The notes: generated by a model from the sequence alone, not told the origin. A stretch of DNA of 64,000 nucleotides from Candidatus Moraniibacteriota bacterium (GCA_049287005.1 JBAQEZ010000003.1:329745-393744); one strand, 5' to 3'. Positions 822-27,885 are shown, numbered from the stretch's first letter. Made by a program: numbers and translations.

Positions 822-3467
822 ATGAGAGGTGAAGGAAGAATCGATCCGCAATCATACCGCAAGGGAGAAAAGAGTTTCTCCAAAAGTTTTCCGTTTCCCG
901 AAGATGGGAAAATAATTTTTACGGATGGTATCGCACCACATGTGGAGCAATCTAAAAAGACTCCACCGAGCAAGGGTGACGTTTTTGAAAATACTACGAG
1001 CGGAGATCGTATTGTTGTGCGTGGGGTAAGAACGCAGGGTGGGGAGCAGAATGTTTCGTATATAGAAACGTATTCTCATGGAGGAGCGAAAAATGGGAAG
1101 AAAGTGATGGAAAAGCCGCTCAGAAACTTCACTGTTTTGGCTGCTGTAGCGGAAATGGAGAAGATCGATCCCATCAAGGAAAAGGATCCAGAGCTTTATG
1201 CGGCGTATGAGGAACAGATGGAGAAATTAGCCGCTGCTTTTGTCCGCGAGTTCACGGCCGTTGACAGGTTGATAGATGCATGGGGCGAATCTTTACAAGA
1301 GACGGCCGATATTGATCTGTACGATCAATTGTATGAAGCAATGGAGAAAATAACCAAGCAATGGAACACGCTGGATGATCGTTTCGTGGAACAGGGAAGG
1401 CACAGAATGCGATTGTTCGCTGAACTCCGTGGACTTGAAGGAAAAATGCCCGGAGACCATCGGGCGGAAATCATGGAACCCAAAGCACTCTATGCTGATT
1501 CGGAGTTCCAGCTCGGGACCGAGTTGGTAGAGAAGATATATCAGAACACTCTGCTGGATAAAAAAGTTGAGGCTCTGCAGAAAAAATACGACCGTGCTAA
1601 AGCCGGCAGGATCGCTATCGCTTCGGATGCGCCGAGTCCCGTGGCTTTCGCAGCGCAGGTCAATGATTTATTCGCTTCCATCGGAGAAGCATCATCGTCA
1701 GAAGATATAAAAAGCGTATTGACTCAATTGGGCGCGCTTGAGGAGCGGGTATTCGTGGGAGAAAAGGAGGCTGTCAGCGGCGATGCGGATAAAAAGAGCC
1801 ATCGCGAGAGCAAGGGGAAATGGCTGAAGCGGTTTCGCGATGTAACGGTTGATGATAAGGTGAAGCCATCGGGTAAGCAGGACGGGAAAAAGATCGCTGG
1901 CACCCGGGCGAGAGGAGGATGGACACCAAAAGACGCAGCCTCAGAGCCGGTTGCTCTGCCCTCCGCTGTTTCAGTGGATGAAAATGGTGTAGAATCAAAA
2001 GAAGAAACCACGCAAGCCATGACAGATACTCCCGTCGCCTCACCATCTGTCGCGGAGTATCTCAATAATACCGATACTATGCATCCCAATGAAAATCCAG
2101 CGCAGCCAGATTCCAAAAAACAGGAGTTTTTGGATGCTTTTGCTCAGACCTTTGAAGATTTGAAGGTAAAAATCTCGGGAGCAGAAAATATGAAAGCATT
2201 GAAAGATCTGAAACGCGGCGGCCGGGATGCAAGGTATATGTTTTTTGATCTGGATAACTTTGCCGAGTATCTCAATCATTTGAATGGCAAGAGCAAGGAA
2301 GAGGAGCGCAGGGAAACATTCGATAAGATAGTGGCAGCAGACAAAGAACTGGACAAGCTCTGCCGGGCAAGAAAGAGGCAGCTAGGGGAAGTGGTATCAA
2401 AACAGACAGGTGTCACAGGGCGTCCCACAAAAGAGAGCGGAGAGAGGGCGGCCAGACGGGAGGGCAAAAAACTTTCCAATGAAGAGGTGTTCGCTCAACT
2501 TACCGGCACATTGAAAGTAGGTCGAATTTTTAAAAAGGATGGAGAGCCCTTGCTCATCATACGTTCTGTCACTTCCGAAGGGATAGATATAGAATTTCGC
2601 AATGATACCAAAGATACGGAATGGAAACATGGGAAGATTGGGCCGAAACAAGCGTCAGTATTTTGGCAACAGTTAGAGACAAGCTTCGGTTGGACCGGAG
2701 AGAAGGCATCGATCAGAAAAGCCAGAACTGCTAAACCTCCTTTTCAGCAGCCCATGCCAGTTGATATAGATGAGGCGGTGAGAGAGGCGCATAATAAGGA
2801 TGCGCTCACTGATGAAGAGAGGAAGCATCAGAAAAAAGTAGGTGCAGAAAAAGTAAAATCAAAACAAGCGTCTTTTGCGAACAAGGAGACAGCCAAGGAG
2901 AGAGCGACTAAAGAGCTGGCGGAGTTGCGCGCTGTCATTGAAGAGAAGAAAAAATGGACCCAAGATTTTTTTGCCGATCCGGCGAATGCCGGCCTGGTGA
3001 CGCAGGAATCGCTCGATAATCTCATCAATTATCTGGATAAATTACGGACAGATTCTGAGAGTGCGGTGGCGGATGGCCGGCACAAGAGAGTGTCTTACGC
3101 TCTCAAAGAGGCTCGTGAAGCCAAATTCATGCCAGAAGAGCCGAAGCAGGAGCCAGCCGTCTCAGCGTCGGCGGAGCAGCTCCAGACACCAGAAAGAACC
3201 TATGAAGCGCTGTATACAGAGGCAGAAAAAAGCGGTTATTCTTATACGCTTATCGGCGCTCTCGCTAGCGGCATTCGTACGATGAAGGAAACCTCTCCGG
3301 AATTGGCAGCTCAGAAGGCAAAATATCAGCAGCAGATCGCCGATGCTCTTATCGATAATATGGAAGATACTTTCAAGGTGACAGGAGAAAAACTTGGCTG
3401 GTCGGCGGCAGAAAAGAAAATTTTTATTGCAGAAATCGTCGCCAGCAGTATTGAAAAATTCCTCTAG
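822..3467 (+). CDS. large hypothetical protein (881 aa), highly charged and Lys/Glu-rich, coiled-coil-like, no TM segment
   Basis: Uninterrupted 2.6-kb ORF in a 55% GC background. It is the first gene of a co-directional cluster that ends with the VirD4-like ATPase. No recognisable catalytic motif. Confidence 0.5.
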   Translation: MRGEGRIDPQSYRKGEKSFSKSFPFPEDGKIIFTDGIAPHVEQSKKTPPSKGDVFENTTSGDRIVVRGVRTQGGEQNVSYIETYSHGGAKNGKKVMEKPLRNFTVLAAVAEMEKIDPIKEKDPELYAAYEEQMEKLAAAFVREFTAVDRLIDAWGESLQETADIDLYDQLYEAMEKITKQWNTLDDRFVEQGRHRMRLFAELRGLEGKMPGDHRAEIMEPKALYADSEFQLGTELVEKIYQNTLLDKKVEALQKKYDRAKAGRIAIASDAPSPVAFAAQVNDLFASIGEASSSEDIKSVLTQLGALEERVFVGEKEAVSGDADKKSHRESKGKWLKRFRDVTVDDKVKPSGKQDGKKIAGTRARGGWTPKDAASEPVALPSAVSVDENGVESKEETTQAMTDTPVASPSVAEYLNNTDTMHPNENPAQPDSKKQEFLDAFAQTFEDLKVKISGAENMKALKDLKRGGRDARYMFFDLDNFAEYLNHLNGKSKEEERRETFDKIVAADKELDKLCRARKRQLGEVVSKQTGVTGRPTKESGERAARREGKKLSNEEVFAQLTGTLKVGRIFKKDGEPLLIIRSVTSEGIDIEFRNDTKDTEWKHGKIGPKQASVFWQQLETSFGWTGEKASIRKARTAKPPFQQPMPVDIDEAVREAHNKDALTDEERKHQKKVGAEKVKSKQASFANKETAKERATKELAELRAVIEEKKKWTQDFFADPANAGLVTQESLDNLINYLDKLRTDSESAVADGRHKRVSYALKEAREAKFMPEEPKQEPAVSASAEQLQTPERTYEALYTEAEKSGYSYTLIGALASGIRTMKETSPELAAQKAKYQQQIADALIDNMEDTFKVTGEKLGWSAAEKKIFIAEIVASSIEKFL

Positions 3468-3519
3468 ACGAGGGCGAGGGGCGAAAACATCAAAAGGTGA
3501 AAGCTATTCATAAAAAAGC

Positions 3520-6306
3520 ATGAGCGAAAAAGATATCCTTGCGGCTATTCAAAAAGGAGCGCATATCGCAGGTGAGGAGGCGCGCAAACACTTGGGAGCG
3601 GATATCGCTGCTGCGCGGGTTGCGGCGATGACTCCTGATACTTTAAACGTGGAGCAGGCTGCTGGTCCCGATGCTCCTGTGGCCGTGGAGGCGATATCAG
3701 GAGCGACGGATATTGATGCAACGAATGTAAGAAGTCTTCGTAAAAGAGCAAGAAGAGATAAGGGGGCAAAATTGACAACATCATCGGCTACTCCTGTGGC
3801 GGTTGCCGTTCAACCTGTACCGGAACCAGCATCGGAGCCCGCGGTAGCGGCGGACGTAAAGATGCCGGAAGAGCGGCAGGCGCGGGAATTCGTGGAAAGT
3901 ATCCCGGATGGCGAGGAGATAATTTTGGTGAGCAGGAAAGGGAGAAGGGAACACTATCGGCGGGATGGCGCTGATCTGGTAAAGAAAAATGGCGATATCG
4001 TGACATTACCGGCCTGGAAAAAACATCGGGACGGATGGACACGGTCTCAGGAAGGAGTGAGGATCGAGCCTGTTCCGCAGAAGAAGCAGTTACCGCAGCG
4101 TGAGGGGGAAACAGTCGAGCTCATGGATCCTGTGGCCATGGAACTTTTCGAATACGTGCGACGCGGAGACGGATATACTCTTGTCGGTTCGGACGGCAAG
4201 GATGCTGAGTCGATTACGGCGGACGAACTGGAGCGTTTGCTGCGGACTGGCAAACTGTCCTTTACCGAGCAAGTCGCATCGCTCGACAACGAGGAGCATG
4301 AGCAAGGCGATCCATTGGAGGAGACAGAGCTGTTGCCGCATGACAGTCCTGAGGGCAAAGCGATTCTGGAGCAGTTCGGATTGAATCCAGAGTCCGTCCG
4401 AACGCCGGCCGAGATTGAACAAAACGCCATCGAAGAAAAAATTGCCGCGCTGAAAAACGAGGTGGGAGAGATGCGCGCGAAGTACGCGAAGGAAGACTAC
4501 GAAAGCGCGAATAATTGGAAGAAGCTCGCGGCTTTTTTCCGTCTGAAAAAATCAGATGAAAAAAATGCGGATACCGCGTATTGGAAGGCGCATTATAATA
4601 ATAAGCTCATTGATCTGAAAAATCTGGAGCTTGAGAAAATCAAGTCGTCAGATATGACTGAGGCAGCCGCGAAAAAAGAAATAATCGGTTTGCTCGAGTA
4701 TTATAAAAAGAGTGAGCCGCTTCAGCTCCATGCAGACCGTACACAAGTGAAAGCGGAACATCAAGGATGGCCAGGCAAGGTGATGGGTGCGTTTGAGGCT
4801 ATCGGAAGGAAATACAACCAGCGTTCTCGTAAAGAGAAGTATGTGACTGCGGCGGCATTGTTCGGACTGGCTGGCGCGACTGGCGGTGCCTCGCTTATGG
4901 CGGGGAGATTTTTTTCGAGTGCGGGCACTTTTGTCGGTCTGGATGCTTTTTTTGAAGGAATGGCTGAGAAGAAAATGAATAAGAGAGCCACAGCAGAAGC
5001 TCAGGAAGCGATGTCGGTTTGGGAGGGGCGACGAGAAGAGGGTCGGTTATCGAAAGTGGATATCGAACATTTCAGCGAACTTTTGCAGAATGATATTTTT
5101 GCATCGGATAAAAGGCTCCAAGATCAGAAGCGCAGCGCGTTGTTTCGAAAATCTTTGGCAGCGGCGATGGCGGCGGGCGTAGCCTTCGGCTTGCCCGGGT
5201 GGCTGTTCAATGAGTTGGGCGGACGAGAGTTGGCGGGCGCGACAGCGGGGTTCGTGATGAAGGACCTGGGCGGACGCGAAGCGGCAGATTTGGCCAAAGA
5301 GCAATTGTCAGATGCTTTTCATGGCACCGATATGGCTCATCCCGAGATGGTGATTCATCCCCATAGTCTTGGAGAAACACTCGCGCCTGAACCACAGACC
5401 GCAGAGGCGACCGGTATGACGGATGAGCAGTCGCGCGCCCTGGCAGCATCATCCGCGGAAGCACGGCCCGATTTTATCAATGAATTCGTAACGAAAGATA
5501 TCGTCGTCCGGCAAGGCGACTCGGTATGGAAAATCGCCGACCGATTGGCGAAAGAGCTCGGCCTGGAAGAGAAAAGCCCCCAAAGCACGCATTTTATTGA
5601 TGCGATTAAAGACAAATATGGGGATGTTTTATTGAAAGAAGGGGAAACGATTAATTTTTCATCCCAGGGCATTGATAAGGGCTTTATTGAGAATGCTTTG
5701 GGAGACGCGAAGGCATTGACGGCAGAACAGGCGGCTTCCATCGCGGCCCATGATGTGAAGATTGAGGAATTCGCGGCGGCTCATCCGGATGTCACGCTGA
5801 CGGATGAAAGCGTGGACGCGATCTTGCGGGAGCCAGACGGAGCGGATGTTCCAGCCGATGCGGTATCGGAGACCGGAGGAGATGATGGGGGATTGGTCGC
5901 CAGCACCGCCGTGGCCCATGAGAAGGGTTGGCAGCCTGCGGATATACAGTATGATCGGGATATCGTATTGGGAGCCAAGTATGATGTCACGGCGTACACG
6001 GAGTTTTTCAAGTTGAATCCGGAAGCTTTTCCGCAGTTTAAGAAGGTCGGAGAATCCTATCTGGAATTCATCTTCCAAGGAGATCAGACTGACACGAGGG
6101 CTATCGGAGGGAAAATGTTCGGTGAGTTGCGACGTCTGCCGAGCGAATCTTTGGGTCAGTTTGTCAAAATGGCACAGGAAACCTATGGAAGCAAGTTCGG
6201 CCTGCCCAATCCGAAGGAACAAGTGTATGCATACGTCGCGCGCATGGCGATGCTCGGTATGGAGCATCCGACTGGCAAACTCATCCGTTTACCGCAGGCG
6301 ATATGA
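3520..6306 (+). CDS. large hypothetical membrane protein (928 aa) with two central hydrophobic segments and a possible LysM-like segment
   Basis: Long ORF spaced 52 nt after the previous gene. Hydrophobic stretches YVTAAALFGLAGATGGASLMAG and LAAAMAAGVAFGLPGWLF. The segment DIVVRQGDSVWKIADRLAKELGL resembles a LysM motif. Confidence 0.5.
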   Translation: MSEKDILAAIQKGAHIAGEEARKHLGADIAAARVAAMTPDTLNVEQAAGPDAPVAVEAISGATDIDATNVRSLRKRARRDKGAKLTTSSATPVAVAVQPVPEPASEPAVAADVKMPEERQAREFVESIPDGEEIILVSRKGRREHYRRDGADLVKKNGDIVTLPAWKKHRDGWTRSQEGVRIEPVPQKKQLPQREGETVELMDPVAMELFEYVRRGDGYTLVGSDGKDAESITADELERLLRTGKLSFTEQVASLDNEEHEQGDPLEETELLPHDSPEGKAILEQFGLNPESVRTPAEIEQNAIEEKIAALKNEVGEMRAKYAKEDYESANNWKKLAAFFRLKKSDEKNADTAYWKAHYNNKLIDLKNLELEKIKSSDMTEAAAKKEIIGLLEYYKKSEPLQLHADRTQVKAEHQGWPGKVMGAFEAIGRKYNQRSRKEKYVTAAALFGLAGATGGASLMAGRFFSSAGTFVGLDAFFEGMAEKKMNKRATAEAQEAMSVWEGRREEGRLSKVDIEHFSELLQNDIFASDKRLQDQKRSALFRKSLAAAMAAGVAFGLPGWLFNELGGRELAGATAGFVMKDLGGREAADLAKEQLSDAFHGTDMAHPEMVIHPHSLGETLAPEPQTAEATGMTDEQSRALAASSAEARPDFINEFVTKDIVVRQGDSVWKIADRLAKELGLEEKSPQSTHFIDAIKDKYGDVLLKEGETINFSSQGIDKGFIENALGDAKALTAEQAASIAAHDVKIEEFAAAHPDVTLTDESVDAILREPDGADVPADAVSETGGDDGGLVASTAVAHEKGWQPADIQYDRDIVLGAKYDVTAYTEFFKLNPEAFPQFKKVGESYLEFIFQGDQTDTRAIGGKMFGELRRLPSESLGQFVKMAQETYGSKFGLPNPKEQVYAYVARMAMLGMEHPTGKLIRLPQAI

Positions 6307-6367: not shown

Positions 6368-6673
6368 ATGGCACTTGATCAAGAAGCACTGAAAAAAGAA
6401 TTGATTGAAGTTTTTCATCTGGAAGACGTTCCGGCAAGCAAGCAAGAGGAATTACTGTCCAAAGTAGGAGAGGCGTTGCTCAAGCGGATTTTTCTAGAAA
6501 CCATGGAAAAGATGGGCGATGCGAACGTGACAGAATATGAAGCATTGTTAGACAAGGGAGCCAAACAGGAAGAACTCGAAGCATTTTTTGAAAAGAAGAT
6601 TCCAGGGTATACTGTCTTTGTACGTGGTGTTGTCACGCGATTCAAGGAAGAGATGGCAGAGGGCTTGGTTTAA
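6368..6673 (+). CDS. small hypothetical protein (101 aa)
   Basis: ORF in operon context between the large proteins and the ATPase; acidic and helical in composition. Confidence 0.4.
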   Translation: MALDQEALKKELIEVFHLEDVPASKQEELLSKVGEALLKRIFLETMEKMGDANVTEYEALLDKGAKQEELEAFFEKKIPGYTVFVRGVVTRFKEEMAEGLV

Positions 6674-6707: not shown

Positions 6708-7142
6708 ATGTCAGAAGAAAAAATTGAGGGAGGGGTAGAGAGCGGGAAAATGAGTGAAGATGGTTCCGAAAAACAGCCGGGGGATGAAGGAACATTGGAA
6801 ATCTTTCCGGCGCAAGAAAAGGCAGTATCTGCCGAAGGGGAGTCAGAGCGGCTCGAAGGAAAATATAACGAGATTCTTGCGAAAGTGGCGCCTCAGACCG
6901 CGACGAGCGGCCAGTTATCTGATCAGGATGCCATGCTGGATGCCAAGAGTATCAGCGCTACGGTTGATGAAGAAAGCAAGATTCAGAAGCTGCTTGATCT
7001 GGCATCATCCAAGGGGGTTGTCTATGCAGTCAAGGTGGCTCGATCTCTTCAGGATTATTACGCGTTGGATCGGATGCACGACGAGTTGGCGGATAAATTG
7101 TACGCAGGGCTTTTGGCGAAAGGCCTTATCACGAAAGAATAA
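6708..7142 (+). CDS. small hypothetical protein (144 aa)
   Basis: Start reassigned to the internal ATG at 6708 (MSEEKIEGG...) because the 6588 start overlaps the upstream gene. Followed by a GC hairpin CGGGATC-CGC-GATCCCG at about 7176-7192. Confidence 0.4.
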   Translation: MSEEKIEGGVESGKMSEDGSEKQPGDEGTLEIFPAQEKAVSAEGESERLEGKYNEILAKVAPQTATSGQLSDQDAMLDAKSISATVDEESKIQKLLDLASSKGVVYAVKVARSLQDYYALDRMHDELADKLYAGLLAKGLITKE

Positions 7143-23904: not shown

Positions 23905-23977
23905 GCCACCTTAGCTCAGTTGGTAGAGCAACGCACTTGTAATGCGTGGGTCCTCGGTTCGAGTCCGAGAGGTGGCT
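23905..23977 (+). tRNA. tRNA-Thr (anticodon TGT)
   Basis: Manual fold: 7-bp acceptor GCCACCT/AGGTGGC, D-arm GCTCAGTTGGTAGAGC, anticodon loop CTTGTAA, T-loop TTCGAGT. Confidence 0.85.
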
Positions 23978-24031
23978 CAGTTTGAATAAAAGAGACGAGT
24001 TTGATAGGATGTGGTAGTCCTTTGTAAATAT

Positions 24032-24114
24032 GGGTAGGTGGTAGAGTGGTCTATTACAACAGACTGTAAATCTGTCGGCTTCGGCCTTCGGGGGTTCGAA
24101 TCCCTCCCTACCCA
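24032..24114 (+). tRNA. tRNA-Tyr (anticodon GTA) with long variable arm
   Basis: Acceptor GGGTAGG/CCTACCC, anticodon loop CTGTAAA, long variable arm, T-loop TTCGAAT. Confidence 0.8.
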
Positions 24115-24121
24115 CAAAAAT

Positions 24122-24151
24122 GAAAACAACTCCCGCAAGGGGGTTGTTTTC
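24122..24151 (+). terminator. rho-independent terminator after the tRNA-Thr/tRNA-Tyr pair
   Basis: GAAAACAACTCCCGCAAGGGGGTTGTTTTC hairpin. Confidence 0.7.
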
Positions 24152-24164
24152 ATTTGGGTAGGAG

Positions 24165-24298
24165 GAAGCCAACTGCTTGGCTTCCGAGAGGGATGAGAAG
24201 GCCGGAACGCTGTACGAGTTTGCCCATAGGGCAAGGCGAGTACCGTGAGGCGGGGTCGCGAAATTTTTCCGTCAGGAAAAATATTTGTGACCGAATCC
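24165..24298 (+). ncRNA. candidate structured RNA / repeat element, copy A
   Basis: Begins with hairpin GAAGCCAA-CTGC-TTGGCTTC, shares the block GTGAGGCGGGGTCGCGA with copy B, has a second hairpin ATTTTTCC-GTCA-GGAAAAAT, and ends TTGTGACCGAATCC. The terminal motif recurs at 24414-24430. Confidence 0.4.
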
Positions 24299-24497
24299 AT
24301 GTTAACGTGAAGGGCGTGAGTAGAAAGCGAGCGAGCGCAGCTTTCTGTGTGTAGCGCCAAGGCTCCGCGTCGGAGCGCGGAGGAATCCCTCTCGCTTACT
24401 GTTAGCAAATTATCTGTGACCGAATCCATTCCGCTGGACTTTTTCGTGAAAATCCTTACAATAGAAAAGTCACCGGAAGTAGATTTTTATTGAAACC

Positions 24498-24944
24498 ATG
24501 CAATTCAAAAAGAAACTTGTTTTTGAAACAGAATATTGGCGTGTTGGTTTGGCTGAAGAACAGACGTATCTTGGCTATTGTGTAGTTGCTTTGAAAAGGC
24601 AGGAAGGATTAAGGGGAGATTTGGTGGATCTTACACAAGAGGAGGCTATTGATTTTTTCAATGTGGTGAAGAAGTTTGAGGTAGCTCTTCGCGGCGCTTT
24701 TGATGCAACGATGTTTAATTGGTCCTGTCTCATGAACAATGCGTACCAGTTGCCGGATCCAAAACCACATGTTCATTGGCACGTGAAGCCACGATATAAT
24801 CATTCAGTTGAATTCGAAGGAGAGACCTTTGAAGATGTGAGATTCGGCCACCATTACACATTACTTGAAAATCTCAATCGGACGGTATCTGAGGAAGTGC
24901 AAGAAAAGATTATTGCAAAGATACAAGAGAGTTTGCCGTTGTAG
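24498..24944 (+). CDS. HIT (histidine triad) family hydrolase
   Basis: HVHWHV histidine-triad motif and HIT-like N-terminus. Its TAG stop lies inside the 5' end of the following tRNA-Thr gene. Confidence 0.75.
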   Translation: MQFKKKLVFETEYWRVGLAEEQTYLGYCVVALKRQEGLRGDLVDLTQEEAIDFFNVVKKFEVALRGAFDATMFNWSCLMNNAYQLPDPKPHVHWHVKPRYNHSVEFEGETFEDVRFGHHYTLLENLNRTVSEEVQEKIIAKIQESLPL

Positions 24945-25008
24945 CTCAGTTGGTAGAGCACGTCATTGGTAATGACGAGGTCATCGGTTCAATCCCGATC
25001 AACGGCTC
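24936..25008 (+). tRNA. tRNA-Thr (anticodon GGT)
   Basis: Acceptor GCCGTTG/CAACGGC, anticodon loop TTGGTAA, T-loop TTCAATC. Confidence 0.85.
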
Positions 25009-25187
25009 AAATAAGAGCAGAGGAGTGTTGATCATGTCGCTCGTCCGTCACGTCATTCGAGCAACGATAGTGACAAGTTGGGCGACAGAGTATTGACCAC
25101 GTCGTTCGCGAGCGACGGTGGTTGACGAAAGCAGTGTTTTCCAGTACAGTGAAAAAGCTTTGTAAACAGCTAGCAATCGAGAGGAAT

Positions 25188-25349
25188 ATGGGACAGATAA
25201 AAGATACGATAGTAAAACTCAAGTGTTCTCTGTGTAGCCGTATCACGCATTACACGAAACGCAATAAGAAAAAAGTGAAAGAAAAGCTTGCGCTCAGCAA
25301 ATATTGCCGTTTCTGTCAGAAGAACGCACCTCACACCGAGAGCAAATAG
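25188..25349 (+). CDS. rpmG: 50S ribosomal protein L33 (zinc-ribbon type)
   Basis: MGQIKDTIVKLKCSLCSRITHYTKRNKKKVKEKLALSKYCRFCQKNAPH has the L33 pattern with four Cys. Start reassigned to the internal ATG. Confidence 0.85.
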   Translation: MGQIKDTIVKLKCSLCSRITHYTKRNKKKVKEKLALSKYCRFCQKNAPHTESK

Positions 25350-25426
25350 TTCTCGGTTTTTGGTAATTTTGGTATAATGAATGTGGTTATGTAAGTTGTA
25401 TAACTTATAGTCACTATTCGTTATTT

Positions 25427-26077
25427 ATGTTGAGAGTAGAAGTAAAAGAAAAAGCGACTGCTCTGCGAGAACAGGGGTATTCGCTTAGTGAAATAAGTCA
25501 ACAGTTAAGTATTTCACAAAGTACCGCCAGCTTGTGGTTGAGGGGCATCAAACTATCTGAGAAAGCCAGGGGAAGAATAGATAGTCTGAGTGTTAGTGGA
25601 AGAAAAAAGGCTGTTGAGACAAATAGAAAAAAAAGAGCGGTAGAGGATATAGAAATAGCAGAAAAAGTAGAGAGGTATTTCTTGGGGCAACAAAAAATAG
25701 ATTCTAAAATTGCATGTGCTTTGTTATACTGGGGTGAAGGAACGAAGTATAGTGGCAATAAGTCTGTTTCTTTCATGAATGCGGATCCAGAAATGATAGG
25801 ATATTTTCTCCGTGCCTTCAGAAACTCCTTTTCTCTAGATGAAAAGAGGCTTAGGGCACTTATCCATTTGCATGAGTATCATGATGCGGACAAACAACTT
25901 AAATTTTGGTCAAATATAACAAAGATTCCCACCAGTCAATTCAATAAATCGTATCTCAAGAAGAACACGGGTAAGAGCGAAAAGGAAAATTATCCAGGCT
26001 GTATCAGCATTAGGTACTCTGATAATAAAGTCTATAAAGAATTGATGCTTATTATAGGAAAACTAGCGAAGATATAA
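25427..26077 (+). CDS. hypothetical HTH-domain protein (216 aa), low GC
   Basis: N-terminal HTH (GYSLSEISQQLSISQSTASLWLRG). Codon usage is visibly more AT-rich than neighbouring genes. It is inserted between rpmG and tRNA-Trp. Confidence 0.5.
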   Translation: MLRVEVKEKATALREQGYSLSEISQQLSISQSTASLWLRGIKLSEKARGRIDSLSVSGRKKAVETNRKKRAVEDIEIAEKVERYFLGQQKIDSKIACALLYWGEGTKYSGNKSVSFMNADPEMIGYFLRAFRNSFSLDEKRLRALIHLHEYHDADKQLKFWSNITKIPTSQFNKSYLKKNTGKSEKENYPGCISIRYSDNKVYKELMLIIGKLAKI

Positions 26078-26085
26078 AATAGAAT

Positions 26086-26156
26086 GCGAGTGTAGTTTAA
26101 CGGTAGAACAGCGGCCTCCAAATCCGCTAGCGAAGGTCCGACTCCTTCCACTCGTG
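26086..26156 (+). tRNA. tRNA-Trp (anticodon CCA)
   Basis: Acceptor GCGAGTG/CACTCGT, anticodon loop CTCCAAA. The T-loop TCCGACT has C at position 55. Confidence 0.75.
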
Positions 26157-26202
26157 CTAGAAATCATTTGGTATTTGTCATTTGAATTTTGATATTTCAA
26201 AT

Positions 26203-26274
26203 GGCCCTATCGTCTATCGGCTAGGACGCCAGGTTCTCATCCTGGTAAGAGGGGTCCGACTCCCCTTAGGGCTA
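26203..26274 (+). tRNA. tRNA-Glu (anticodon CTC)
   Basis: Close to E. coli tRNA-Glu in architecture: 3-bp D-stem GTC/GAC, anticodon loop TTCTCAT, T-arm AGGGG-TCCGACT-CCCCT, acceptor GGCCCTA/TAGGGCT. Confidence 0.75.
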
Positions 26275-26296
26275 CAACGAAGTTGAAGACATAAAA

Positions 26297-26406
26297 CACG
26301 CCAACTGCTTGGCGTGTGTGGGGATGTCGAAAGCCGGAGCGATGCCGCAAGGCTGCGAGGCGGGGTCGCGAGCCATACGTCTCGTATGGACTTGTGACCG
26401 ACTCTC
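26297..26406 (+). ncRNA. candidate structured RNA / repeat element, copy B
   Basis: Hairpin CACGCCAA-CTGC-TTGGCGTG has the same loop as copy A with different stem bases. It shares the block GAGGCGGGGTCGCGA, has a second hairpin CCATACG-TCTC-GTATGG, and ends TTGTGACCGACTCTC. It is bracketed by direct repeats of TAGGGCTACAACGAAG at 26267-26282 and 26407-26422. Confidence 0.4.
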
Positions 26407-26448
26407 TAGGGCTACAACGAAGAACCCTCCTTCAGGCCACATGTTTTT

Positions 26449-26556: not shown

Positions 26557-27885
26557 ATGAAGAGGATACCGGAACAGCAACGAAAGCCTTTGAGCAGAAT
26601 ATTGGTTATCGGTAGCGGTGGCCGTGAACATGCCATCGCGTGGAAACTGGCGCAAAGCCCAGAAGTGGAAGCGGTGTATGTCGCGTCCGGCAATGTTGGA
26701 ACGGCAAGGGAGCCGAAGGTACAGAATATTCCCATTACCGACATTGCGCTCCTCGCGGATTTTGCAGCGCAGAACAGTATCGATGTGACGGTGGTAGGAC
26801 CTGAAGCGCCATTGGTAGCGGGCATCGTGGATCTGTTTCGCGACCGTGGTCTGAAGATTTTTGGTCCGACGCAAGCAGCGGCGCAATTGGAATCCTCCAA
26901 GACTTTCGCGAAGCGTTTCATGAACCGTTGTCATATACCGACTGCGGACTACTGCGAATTCGCTTCCGCGGCATTGGCACATACCTACCTTGTCAGTCGG
27001 TCTCTTGACGATCTGCCGATTGTGGTCAAGGCCGATTGGTTGGCTGCGGGCAAAGGGGTGGTAGTCGCCAAGAGCCACCGTGAGGCGCACGACGCAGTCG
27101 ACATGCTTTTTGCCGCTACGACTGTGCCGGATCAGGAGAAACGGATCATCATCGAAAACTGCATTGCCGGCACGGAGGCGAGTTACATCGTCATGGTTGA
27201 TGGTCGGAATGTTTTGGCATTGGTGACGAGCCAGGATCATAAACGCCTCCTCGACGACAACAGGGGATTGAATACCGGCGGTATGGGAGCGATTTCTCCT
27301 GCGCCTATCATCACGTCTGCTATGAATACGCGCGTCATGCATGAAATTATCATGCCTGCGGTGCACAGAATGGCCGACGAAGGTATCCCGTACACCGGAT
27401 TTCTCTACGCGGGGCTGATGATCGATGCCGAGAACAACCCATATGTACTCGAGTTCAACTGTCGCCTTGGCGATCCGGAAACGGAAGTGATCCTGATGCG
27501 CTTACGGAGCGATCTGTATCCGCTCATCAGGCACGGCGCGAATGGCACGCTGGATTTGGCGAATGCGGAGTGGGATGATCGCGTAGCGCTCGGCGTCGTG
27601 CTGGCAGCTGCCGGTTATCCAGATAAACCGCGCAAGGGGGATCCAATTTCCGGGTTGCCGCGGGAAACCCCTGACTGCAAAGTCTTCCATGCCGGTACCG
27701 CCGAAGCGGGCGACAAGCTCGTTACGGCGGGCGGGCGCGTGTTGTGCGTGACGGTGCTTGGCGACGATATCGGCGATGCGCGGAGGCGAGCTTACGAAGC
27801 GGTGAAAACCGTTCACTTCGCAGGGGTGCAATACCGGAAAGACATCGGCAAATGTGCTTTGGCGGCAGCCGCTGATGTCAACTAA
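26557..27885 (+). CDS. purD: phosphoribosylamine--glycine ligase
   Basis: VLVIGSGGREHAIAWKLAQS N-terminus and an ATP-grasp core (GFLYAGLMI, EFNCRLGDPE). Confidence 0.9.
   Translation: MKRIPEQQRKPLSRILVIGSGGREHAIAWKLAQSPEVEAVYVASGNVGTAREPKVQNIPITDIALLADFAAQNSIDVTVVGPEAPLVAGIVDLFRDRGLKIFGPTQAAAQLESSKTFAKRFMNRCHIPTADYCEFASAALAHTYLVSRSLDDLPIVVKADWLAAGKGVVVAKSHREAHDAVDMLFAATTVPDQEKRIIIENCIAGTEASYIVMVDGRNVLALVTSQDHKRLLDDNRGLNTGGMGAISPAPIITSAMNTRVMHEIIMPAVHRMADEGIPYTGFLYAGLMIDAENNPYVLEFNCRLGDPETEVILMRLRSDLYPLIRHGANGTLDLANAEWDDRVALGVVLAAAGYPDKPRKGDPISGLPRETPDCKVFHAGTAEAGDKLVTAGGRVLCVTVLGDDIGDARRRAYEAVKTVHFAGVQYRKDIGKCALAAAADVN

Follow-up and report, generated by a model that had tools for sequence, protein, structure and literature searches.

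What are the two short, similarly built segments that stand directly behind tRNA genes in a 64-kb stretch of a Candidatus Moraniibacteriota genome: resident host RNAs, the leftovers of larger islands, or small mobile elements in their own right? This stretch, from a Candidate Phyla Radiation (CPR) member, is hereafter called the window, and all positions are counted from its first letter. Copy A (24156-24300) follows tRNA-Tyr and copy B (26296-26422) follows tRNA-Glu. A sequence-only reading of the locus had regarded the two as a structured RNA family or a small mobile element. This view has held up; the structure, for its part, covaries across 124 distinct copies and has changed in a compensatory manner between orthologues. 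From comparison with other genomes, whose loci are designated L001-L131, A and B belong to a widespread, uncatalogued family of elements of ~90-140 nt. The interpretation to which we assign a probability of about one half is that they are sense-strand RNA elements with a three-way junction, acting as miniature, protein-less insertion modules for the 3′ part of tRNA and transfer-messenger RNA (tmRNA) genes. An assembly artefact is excluded by three further assemblies, in which the region containing A and B is 99.98-100% identical.

Architecture and fold of the elements

Both copies are organized around a conserved core, here termed core1, which forms a three-way junction of the type (U)CGAAAGCCGGA-P2-GAGGCGGGGUCGCGR-P3-YYGUGACCGA. 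Read 5′ to 3′ on the tRNA strand, a complete locus consists of the tRNA gene, a spacer that is often an intrinsic-terminator-like hairpin, a 5′ arm (X), an optional hairpin 1, (U)CGAAAGCCGGA, P2, GAGGCGGGG, P3, GA, and a 3′ arm (S). Hairpin 1, with its CUGC loop, occurs in 32/122 copies. P2 is a variable hairpin with an invariant GCC/GGC base and a GGA/GA internal loop, while in P3 the strand GGUCGCGR is paired with YYGUGACC and the distal part varies. S is a direct copy of the neighbouring tRNA that starts at the T-loop residues C56-G57-A58, continues through the 3′ strands of T-stem and acceptor stem and the discriminator, and stops ~0-3 nt beyond the latter, mostly within ~3 nt of the called tRNA end. 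At the junction, GGTTCGA is followed by N in the tRNA and GACCGA by N in the element; the 3′ end of the element, GUGACCGA followed by N, thus resembles the target GGUUCGA followed by N. Since S is present twice, the upstream tRNA stays intact. X is the reverse complement of S, including the complement of the non-palindromic loop positions 59-60, and hence is not copied from the tRNA's own 5′ strands. Together, X and S make up the closing helix P1, in which G.U pairs are tolerated. The core is common to sites and genomes and the arms are site-specific. It had escaped the sequence-only reading that the 5′ side corresponds to the reverse complement of the tRNA end, so that the repeat forms the closing helix. 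An interrupted tRNA pseudogene, with the core lodged in the T loop of a duplicated tRNA, was considered and rejected: X carries the complement of positions 59-60, and the complements of acceptor and T-stem strands are contiguous.

Copy B displays this architecture in full; all features listed here for B and A lie on the plus strand. Its host, tRNA-Glu(CTC), was called at 26203-26275 by ARAGORN and Rfam. The left repeat (S_L, 26257-26282) comprises the T-loop CGA of tRNA-Glu, the 3′ strands of T-stem and acceptor stem, the discriminator, and CAACGAAG. Hairpin 1 at 26296-26317 is ACACGCCAA-CUGC-UUGGCGUGU according to the folds. The 5′ arm X, GUGGGGAUGUCG (26318-26329), was delimited by the covariance-model alignment and P1 statistics; this arm, the T-loop/T-stem part of the tRNA-Glu end in reverse complement, is paired with 26399-26408, G.U pairs included. 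The core (26330-26398), as aligned by the covariance model, runs through AAAGCCGGAG, the P2 hairpin, GAGGCGGGGUCGCGA (26357-26371), the P3 hairpin, and UUGUGAC. It is followed by the right repeat (S_R, 26399-26422), CGACTCTC-TAGGGCTACAACGAAG, a direct repeat that provides the 3′ strand of P1 together with the copied acceptor 3′ strand and trailer of tRNA-Glu; C-to-T changes within S_R preserve the P1 pairing, G.U being tolerated. The duplication around B, originally described as 16 nt long, is real but longer: it begins at the T-loop CGA and covers 26257-26282 on the left and 26399-26422 on the right, the right copy bearing a small deletion. Allowing up to 3 mismatches, TAGGGCTACAACGAAG is found in the window at 26267 and 26407 only, with ~0.3 chance matches expected.

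Copy A is of the same design as copy B, but with a decayed right arm. Its host is tRNA-Tyr(GTA) at 24032-24115 (ARAGORN, Rfam), whose segment from the T loop to the 3′ end, CGAATCCCTCCCTACCCA, is mirrored by the 5′ arm of the element. An inverted repeat forms a long hairpin (24111-24162) from the 3′ strand and trailer of tRNA-Tyr, a terminator-like stem-loop, and a complement ending in GGGTAGG; it has 24 nt per arm, which are 83% complementary, and a T-run after the stem. X (24156-24197), as judged from sequence, fold, and a direct repeat with the tRNA 5′ end, is interrupted by hairpin 1. Its first part, GGGTAGGAG (24156-24163), is the complement of the acceptor 3′ strand of tRNA-Tyr; hairpin 1, GGAAGCCAA-CUGC-UUGGCUUCC, occupies 24164-24185; and GAGAGGGAUGAG (24186-24197) contains the complement of the T-stem 3′ strand and the GAG/CGA junction. 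The relative L121 shows an arm split in the same way. The covariance model places the core at 24198-24294, with AAGGCCGGA, a long P2 hairpin, GAGGCGGGGUCGCGA (24247-24261), P3, and then GA. In P3, GGUCGCGA (24254-24261) pairs with UUGUGACC (24285-24292). Of the right arm, only 24293-24300 is left, where the tRNA-Tyr copy is reduced to (CGA)ATCC and the repeat ends at CGAATCC.

The features on which the original comparison of A and B was based, a shared architecture with covarying hairpins, are all present. The central block GAGGCGGGGTCGCGA occurs exactly twice in the window (24247 and 26357), the terminal motif TGTGACCGAMTC lies at 24286, 24415, and 26393, and hairpin 1 (GCCAA-CTGC-TTGGC) differs between A and B by three compensatory outer pairs. 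The second hairpin likewise contains five compensatory pairs; the description given of it needs correction in that GGTCGCGA pairs with TTGTGACC to form a single helix, P3.

The fold is well documented across the family. In a MAFFT alignment of 47 sequences 86.8% of the cells pair, compared with 37-44% in slid controls, and in the model alignment of 128 sequences the value is 90.2% versus 35-44%. Changes on both sides are seen in 29 of the 32 pairs of the latter alignment, and none of 500 shuffles reaches the observed values. The fifth pair of P3 is a G.U wobble in 122/124 copies, although the search pattern had permitted G-C or A-U at this place. Tandem G.A variants occur at the boundary between P1 and the junction, where GAG stands opposite CGA. 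Compared with shuffled sequences, the plus strands of A and B fold with z-scores of -5.2 and -5.1, respectively, and the minus strand folds less well. Compensatory pairs and a strand asymmetry involving G.U, as expected of a structured noncoding RNA, were thus both found. The G.U asymmetry and the tandem G.A together argue for a folded sense-strand RNA, with folded single-stranded DNA as the other possibility. The fold is under purifying selection and so of use to the element or to the host. The elements are not called as tRNA or tmRNA by ARAGORN, nor by the Rfam tRNA, tmRNA, and YrlA models. Hammerhead, twister, pistol, and hatchet ribozymes and the k-turn were weighed from the junction sequences; they gave neither a model match nor a diagnostic core. 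A kissing interaction between the loops of hairpin 1 (CUGC) and P3 (CAGCAG) was discarded, as both features are rarely present in one copy.

Distribution, tRNA linkage, and traces of insertion

A degenerate pattern covering the conserved block and the 3′ motif, scanned across one genome per species, yielded at least 120 loci, with ~8 chance matches expected. Among the matches listed, 87 are CPR by record title, 14 are Elusimicrobia, 8 are GC-rich chance matches, and a few are oddly binned metagenome-assembled genomes (MAGs). The CPR groups represented there include Saccharibacteria, Paceibacterota/Parcubacteria, Microgenomates, WWE3, Peregrinibacteria, and others. A near-identical element with its flank is shared between L009, a MAG labelled Bdellovibrionales, and L074, a Moraniibacteriota MAG; this likeness, along with matches in MAGs labelled Gammaproteobacteria and Verrucomicrobiota, suggests mis-binned CPR contigs, not true hosts. 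From 47 of the pattern-scan sequences the covariance model R1 was built, which retrieved at least 128 copies in 100 sources, ~20 of them missed by the pattern. The model search that had been proposed for the locus has found further copies elsewhere, with structure-preserving substitutions. A covariance model from other genomes assigns copy B 63.6 bits (26318-26413; E ~1e-16) and copy A 52.9 bits (E ~1e-13), the score of A (24187-24306) ranging over 52.9-58.3 bits; the next match in the window reaches 11 bits, and A and B are the only core1 elements in it. The companion check against Rfam 15 matched no known family: neither A nor B was overlapped at E<=10 or at gathering score, nor was the L121 orthologue of A or the typical members in six other loci. 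No description was found in the literature searched by topic and sequence motif; the only paper on CPR tRNAs that came up deals with group I introns in anticodon loops.

Statistics on tRNA occupancy and on neighbouring open reading frames (ORFs) rest on the loci fetched from the matches listed. The tRNA 3′-end duplication around a tiny insert, likened to an attachment (att) site in the sequence-only reading, has proved to be the defining architecture of the family. Where enough downstream sequence was at hand, 97/163 tRNA and tmRNA genes are accompanied by a co-oriented element no more than 200 nt away. The occupied genes comprise tRNAs of 19 amino-acid classes and tmRNA, the latter called by ARAGORN in L047 and L080 and inferred in L070 from the adjacent smpB and the T-arm. 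Index copies aside, about one fifth of the remaining tRNAs are occupied; in some loci, such as L081 (3/3), all are. In most tRNA-linked copies the repeat begins at the T-loop CGA, with an intact tRNA upstream. Its left end is fixed, its length varies from ~7 to >55 nt, and 90-200 nt lie between its two copies. Clustering of all ORFs within ±4 kb of ~110 loci revealed no enriched protein family, only housekeeping genes with at most 10 loci per cluster. Across 100 loci the downstream genes differ, and the upstream tRNA is the constant partner.

Several observations point to insertion and movement. Cores that are 95-97% identical, even in stems freely variable elsewhere in the family, are found at different tRNA types in different CPR classes with completely different arms, such as L001 (tRNA-Ser, Saccharibacteria) and L004 (tRNA-Trp tail, Parcubacteria), or L086 (Ser) and L031 (Val) or L090 (Glu). 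L016, L041, L076, and L093 contain tandem units of 140-330 nt that are perfect, and long repeats reaching into a second unit are seen in L005, L007, L010, L066, L111, and L117. Protein genes are entered as well at T-loop-like sites, with duplication of the downstream gene segment. In two different Patescibacteria this concerns the last codons of rpsI (ribosomal protein S9) at the site TGGTCGAAACGC (L039 ~4440-4580; L063 ~4590-4880, where the terminator is duplicated too). In L024 (6540-6937) the element stands behind topA and is accompanied by a second, diverged copy (~10% different, at least 55 nt long) of the coding 3′ end of topA, by which the topA ORF stays complete. At these protein-gene sites it is the local gene sequence whose reverse complement makes up X, at topA including 9 nt upstream of the repeat. 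L109 carries a tyrosine-integrase gene (Pfam Phage_integrase, E = 1.7e-15; oriented 2469-3503) near an element region at 3620-3840, and the integrase island ends at a partial tRNA-Gln 3′ end directly adjoining a core1 element. Classical integrases hence use the same T-loop site, and in L109 a mini-element and a classical island have accreted at a single att site.

The orthologues of A and B illustrate how the parts evolve. The orthologue of A in L121, where the flanking tetratricopeptide repeat (TPR) protein is 62% identical to that of the window, differs from A by double substitutions, five in number and all compensatory, with nothing that disrupts the fold; one of them lies in hairpin 1, one in the P2 base (GCC/GGC to GUC/GAC, otherwise invariant), and two in inner P2. 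Similarity stops directly after GACCGAATC / GACCGAAUC, and tRNA-Thr follows immediately in L121. The right arm is equally decayed in the orthologues of L121 and L123, and the core stays conserved in all three species. The orthologue of B in L124 is ~93% identical. Behind tRNA-Glu in three more Moranbacteria lineages, orthologues of B have in common the left spacer CAACGAAGTTGRAGACA and hairpin 1, their P2 and P3 hairpins being entirely different. Despite this divergence of P2 and P3, the right arm is identical to the local tRNA-Glu end, with S_R equal to S_L in 19/19 positions in two of these lineages. S_R also tracks a change in the acceptor stem of tRNA-Glu, the window having TTAGGGCT versus TTGGGGCT in the others. 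In the window, the first 7-8 nt of the left spacer of the element itself (CAACGAAG) recur behind S_R. Because the right flank in L124 differs, this piece reads best as the stump of a putative second tandem unit.

Core1 is not the only core used in this manner. The terminal motif at 24415, described by the sequence-only reading as a third partial copy, is indeed there, but it belongs to a 23-nt duplicate of the 3′ end of A that brackets an element of another family. This repeat, AAAWTATYTGTGACCGAATCCAT (24278-24300 and 24407-24429, 91% identity; the second copy reading AAATTATCTGTGACCGAATCCAT), encloses a 114-nt core3 element on the plus strand (24301-24414), recognized by blastn: AAGGGCGUGAGUAGAA...CUGUGUGUAG...GUCGGAGC...GGAGGA. 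The core3 consensus is AAGGGCGYGAGUAGAA..CUGUGUGUAG..GUCGGAGC..GGAGGA, followed by a tRNA 3′-end copy. The window's core3 sits inside the T-loop-like 3′ end of copy A and has a decayed tRNA-Tyr-like tail, ATCCCTCTCGCTTAC. It is 96% identical over 80 nt to L125 6836-6915, behind tRNA-Trp, where the element (6820-6935) has perfect tRNA-Trp arms and a right arm of 18 nt; it is 79% identical to L124 6453-6532 (element 6437-6560), behind tRNA-Glu and a core1 element. On these blastn matches in relatives, an assignment as degenerate core1 tandem copy was replaced by core3, and the segment is a member of a second family with the same clamp-type design. Along with this second family, the decayed right arm of A and the span over CPR and Elusimicrobia had gone unnoticed in the sequence-only reading. 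A further core of ~150 nt, core2, which is not in Rfam, occupies the 3′ flank of tRNA-Glu in L121 (8863-9078) and L123 (4605-4850) in the order terminator-X-core-S. To the right of core2, L123 has retained two old tRNA-Glu ends in a stack, of which the outer belongs to the window's TTAGGGCT type. As comparison of L121, L123, and L124 makes clear, different cores stack at one tRNA.

Proposed recombination at the T loop and competing explanations

If A and B are insertion modules, the element body, consisting of spacer or terminator, X, optional hairpin 1, and core, would enter and leave through recombination inside S. The event would be of the Campbell type, at an att-like site in the T loop, as for tRNA-targeting genomic islands, and would be catalyzed by a putative enzyme supplied in trans. 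Repeated recombination between S_L and S_R would keep both identical in active copies and would yield tandem arrays, while copies no longer moving would lose the right arm, as copy A has lost its own. The folded RNA would probably be made within the tRNA operon transcript. Such a scenario would explain the repeat, the tandem arrays, the stacking of elements, the homogenization of S_L and S_R, the decay of S_R, and the occurrence of CAACGAAG behind S_R.

A number of points weigh against this scenario. Its weak point is that X lies in the element body and yet matches each tRNA, so that simple Campbell integration fails to explain one core at 19 tRNA classes; the move of a core to a new tRNA would need either inter-element recombination through the conserved core blocks or a rewriting of the arms. 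With only ~19-25 nt, S is short for recombination of the RecA type. Neither a recombinase nor a circular form nor a precisely vacant site turned up. A metagenome search with the exact sequence of an empty B site produced 0 matches, and every contig with the CAACGAAG trailer has the element. An L125-type strain is devoid of the element, its downstream context being different. A pattern scan of IMG/VR and blastn against phage and plasmid collections returned no matches. Finally, the conserved G.U, the tandem G.A, and the compensatory evolution in orthologues suggest an RNA that has its own function; for a DNA element that is purely selfish there would be no need of such features.

It is on the latter observations that the best of the alternatives draws, a resident, non-mobile noncoding RNA of the host, which we hold to be possible, if rather doubtful. 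Such an RNA would be co-transcribed with the tRNA operon and its P1 would imitate the acceptor/T-stem minihelix; its ends would be set by RNase P, RNase Z, and the CCA-adding enzyme, and its arms would have arisen from local duplication and be kept by conversion or selection. Strong purifying selection on structure in orthologous copies, with conservation of unpaired nucleotides and of the G.U wobble, is in line with this, as are the strand, which is always that of the tRNA, and the tracking of species-specific tRNA changes by S_R. Furthermore, B-type loci have no terminator between tRNA and element and a single one after S_R, and a full-length X makes P1 a contiguous 12-17-bp copy of T-stem plus acceptor stem. 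In the old conserved copies, however (window A, L121, L123), the acceptor part of the right arm is missing, and the minihelix is therefore not needed for conservation of the core. Many loci also have a real terminator between tRNA and X, and the insertions in rpsI and topA duplicate coding sequence, which would be useless for mimicry. Near-identical cores at unrelated tRNAs in distant genomes, tandem arrays, and the stacking of unrelated cores are equally at odds with a resident RNA, as is the occupation of only ~20% of non-index tRNAs.

The insertion reading can be taken a step further, to mobile elements of a new class whose active part would be the RNA itself; we mention this as a tentative and rather unlikely view. 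The clamp formed by X and S would then be a programmable guide pair for the T-arm and acceptor strands of tRNA, and insertion would rewrite the arms via template switching or an RNA-guided or ribozyme-assisted reaction with host enzymes. A core of ~70 nt would thereby colonize any tRNA, tmRNA, or T-loop-like site, and core1, core2, and core3 would share this strategy.

Writing of the arms at each insertion by template switching or another RNA-mediated step is also a serious rival in its own right, albeit an improbable one. A polymerase would copy the tRNA or its gene from the 3′ end to the T loop and switch to the core at the UCGA microhomology, and a fold-back would copy X into S, X resembling a primer-binding site. 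Retroviral reverse transcriptases stop at 1-methyladenosine 58 (m1A58) when copying their primer tRNA; S starts right after A58 and mostly reaches to about the 3′ terminus of the tRNA. X is a genuine reverse complement, non-palindromic loop positions 59-60 included, reading GGAAUCG, GGACUCG, and GGAUUCG for the T-loops CGAUU, CGAGU, and CGAAU, respectively, one half of the T-loop palindrome is found at each end of the core (UCGAAAG... and ...ACCGA(A)), and at several loci X abuts the terminator stem without a spacer. Five right copies (L001, L035, L048, L052, L055) even have a CCA that is absent from the gene copy, but CCA is not systematic: some left copies carry it instead, and many repeats share a genomic CAA or a longer trailer past the mature end. 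In addition, X is imperfect even at loci with perfect S_L and S_R, for example in L117. No reverse transcriptase was linked to the elements among the ORFs around ~110 loci, and in a published survey Patescibacteria showed no group II introns (PMC13011429).

Very little speaks for deletion remnants of integrase islands or prophages of which only the att-proximal end would have survived. The repeat does have the classic form from T loop to 3′ end, and L109 has an integrase island at the same site; but more than 120 independent loci share a minimal architecture of 90-140 nt free of coding remnants, the core is a covarying structure with strand asymmetry, and nothing related is present in viral, phage, and plasmid collections. 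No full-length island with this core next to attP was found. Scarcely credible is a role as riboswitch or cis-regulatory leader of the downstream genes (HIT family behind A, purD behind B), for although a three-way-junction RNA does stand upstream of a nucleotide-metabolism gene, the downstream genes are unrelated across 100 loci, the L121 orthologue of A directly precedes tRNA-Thr, the constant neighbour is the upstream tRNA, and no Rfam riboswitch matches.

Genomic setting, known systems, and significance

The elements reside in a tRNA cluster (23,905-26,275) with the gene order tRNA-Thr(tgt), tRNA-Tyr, HIT-family gene, tRNA-Thr(ggt), rpmG, an ORF of 216 amino acids, tRNA-Trp, and tRNA-Glu. 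The HIT-family ORF (24498-24944) overlaps the start of tRNA-Thr(ggt) (24935-25008) by 10 nt and is missing at the matching position in the relative L121. The 216-amino acid ORF (25427-26077, plus strand), between rpmG and tRNA-Trp, has a weak HTH_23 match and a LAGLIDADG-like motif, LLYWGEGTK. Homologues are located in L123 (1581-2189) and L124 (5236-5886), the former flanked by a duplicated tRNA-Tyr 5′ half, which suggests a mobile, homing-endonuclease-like gene that may also target tRNA genes. Downstream of copy B, purD (26557-27885) has its nearest non-self matches, 60-64% identical, mostly in sequences annotated as Betaproteobacteria or Burkholderiales; it is followed by genes for an orotidine monophosphate-decarboxylase-like protein and a phosphoribosyltransferase, to ~30600. 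What look like horizontally acquired nucleotide-synthesis genes, unusual in a CPR genome, are placed directly after the tRNA-Glu/element site; the relative L123 has purM where the window has purD.

Relatives of the window locus were reached through homologues of the TPR protein. In three of them the anticodon loop of tRNA-Tyr holds an intron-like insertion of ~200 nt (L123 2228-2440; L124 6770-6990, minus strand; L125 5676-5870). These are probably group I introns as reported for Patescibacteria (PMC13011429); the window tRNA-Tyr has no such insertion. L124-L131 and L125/L128 share an identical TPR protein of 275 amino acids, with wholly different contents downstream: the tRNA-Tyr/tRNA-Thr segment is inverted, GIY-YIG and helix-turn-helix (HTH) ORFs are present, and the tRNA-Tyr alleles are distinct. 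The Moranbacteria tRNA cluster is a recombination hot spot.

Among known systems, integrative elements that target tRNA and tmRNA genes by means of tyrosine integrases and T-loop att sites, such as genomic islands, prophages, and integrative and conjugative elements, come closest. The elements share with them insertion into the 3′ part of the gene, a direct repeat from the T loop to about the 3′ end that regenerates it, tandem accretion, and the occasional use of protein-gene 3′ ends with a surrogate end. They differ from them in being 90-140 nt long, not kilobases, in lacking an integrase or any other gene, in serving 19 tRNA classes with one core, and in carrying the reverse complement of the att segment together with a covarying three-way-junction fold. 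With miniature inverted-repeat transposable elements (MITEs), cis-mobilizable elements (CIMEs, the att-flanked, integrase-less derivatives of integrative and conjugative elements), and the hairpin-forming repetitive extragenic palindromic doublets known as REPINs they have in common that they are small, protein-less, multi-copy, hairpin-foldable by inverted-repeat arms, and presumably mobilized in trans; strict specificity of site and orientation for a T-loop-like sequence sets them apart from all three. They further stand out by arms that are target-derived and differ per tRNA, only the core being common, with no fixed terminal repeats; by a long, variable duplication anchored at one end, where MITEs have a target-site duplication of fixed length; and by the absence of an autonomous partner in viral, phage, and plasmid collections or among the flanking ORFs.

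P1 can mimic the acceptor/T-stem stack in the manner of tRNA-like minihelix RNAs, such as the tRNA-like domain of tmRNA, the bacterial Y-RNA-like YrlA, and small RNAs derived from the 3′ external transcribed spacer (3′ETS), and the position in the trailer of a tRNA operon recalls tRNA-linked processed RNAs. Unlike the minihelix RNAs, however, the elements have no analogue of a T loop or D-arm, the identity of their helix follows the neighbouring tRNA, and the right arm is dispensable in old copies. A final likeness is to the primer-binding site of retroviruses and long terminal repeat (LTR) retroelements, as X complements the ~18 3′-terminal nt of tRNA and ends after A58. More precisely, X is complementary to tRNA positions 59-73 and beyond, with CCA inconsistent; there is no consistent TGG (the complement of CCA), no reverse transcriptase or LTR, and a sense copy stands on the other side. 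From these comparisons we infer what would be a tRNA-targeted, gene-regenerating insertion element reduced to a structured RNA module. That its mechanism is new in kind is rather unlikely, yet a possibility to be reckoned with.

CPR bacteria (Patescibacteria) have tiny genomes with little room for junk, yet about one fifth of the non-index tRNAs in the carrier loci studied, and at times all tRNAs of a locus, bear an element. The core1 elements, together with those of core2 and core3, account for many of the "partial tRNA" repeats, contig breaks, and hypervariable tRNA clusters in CPR assemblies, and they merit a curated covariance model. If they are host RNAs, they would constitute a major unannotated RNA family in the tRNA operons of a large share of bacterial diversity. 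If they are mobile, they would be the smallest known gene-regenerating, site-specific insertion elements and would point to a trans-acting or RNA-based recombination activity on the universal T-loop sequence, with potential as a tool.

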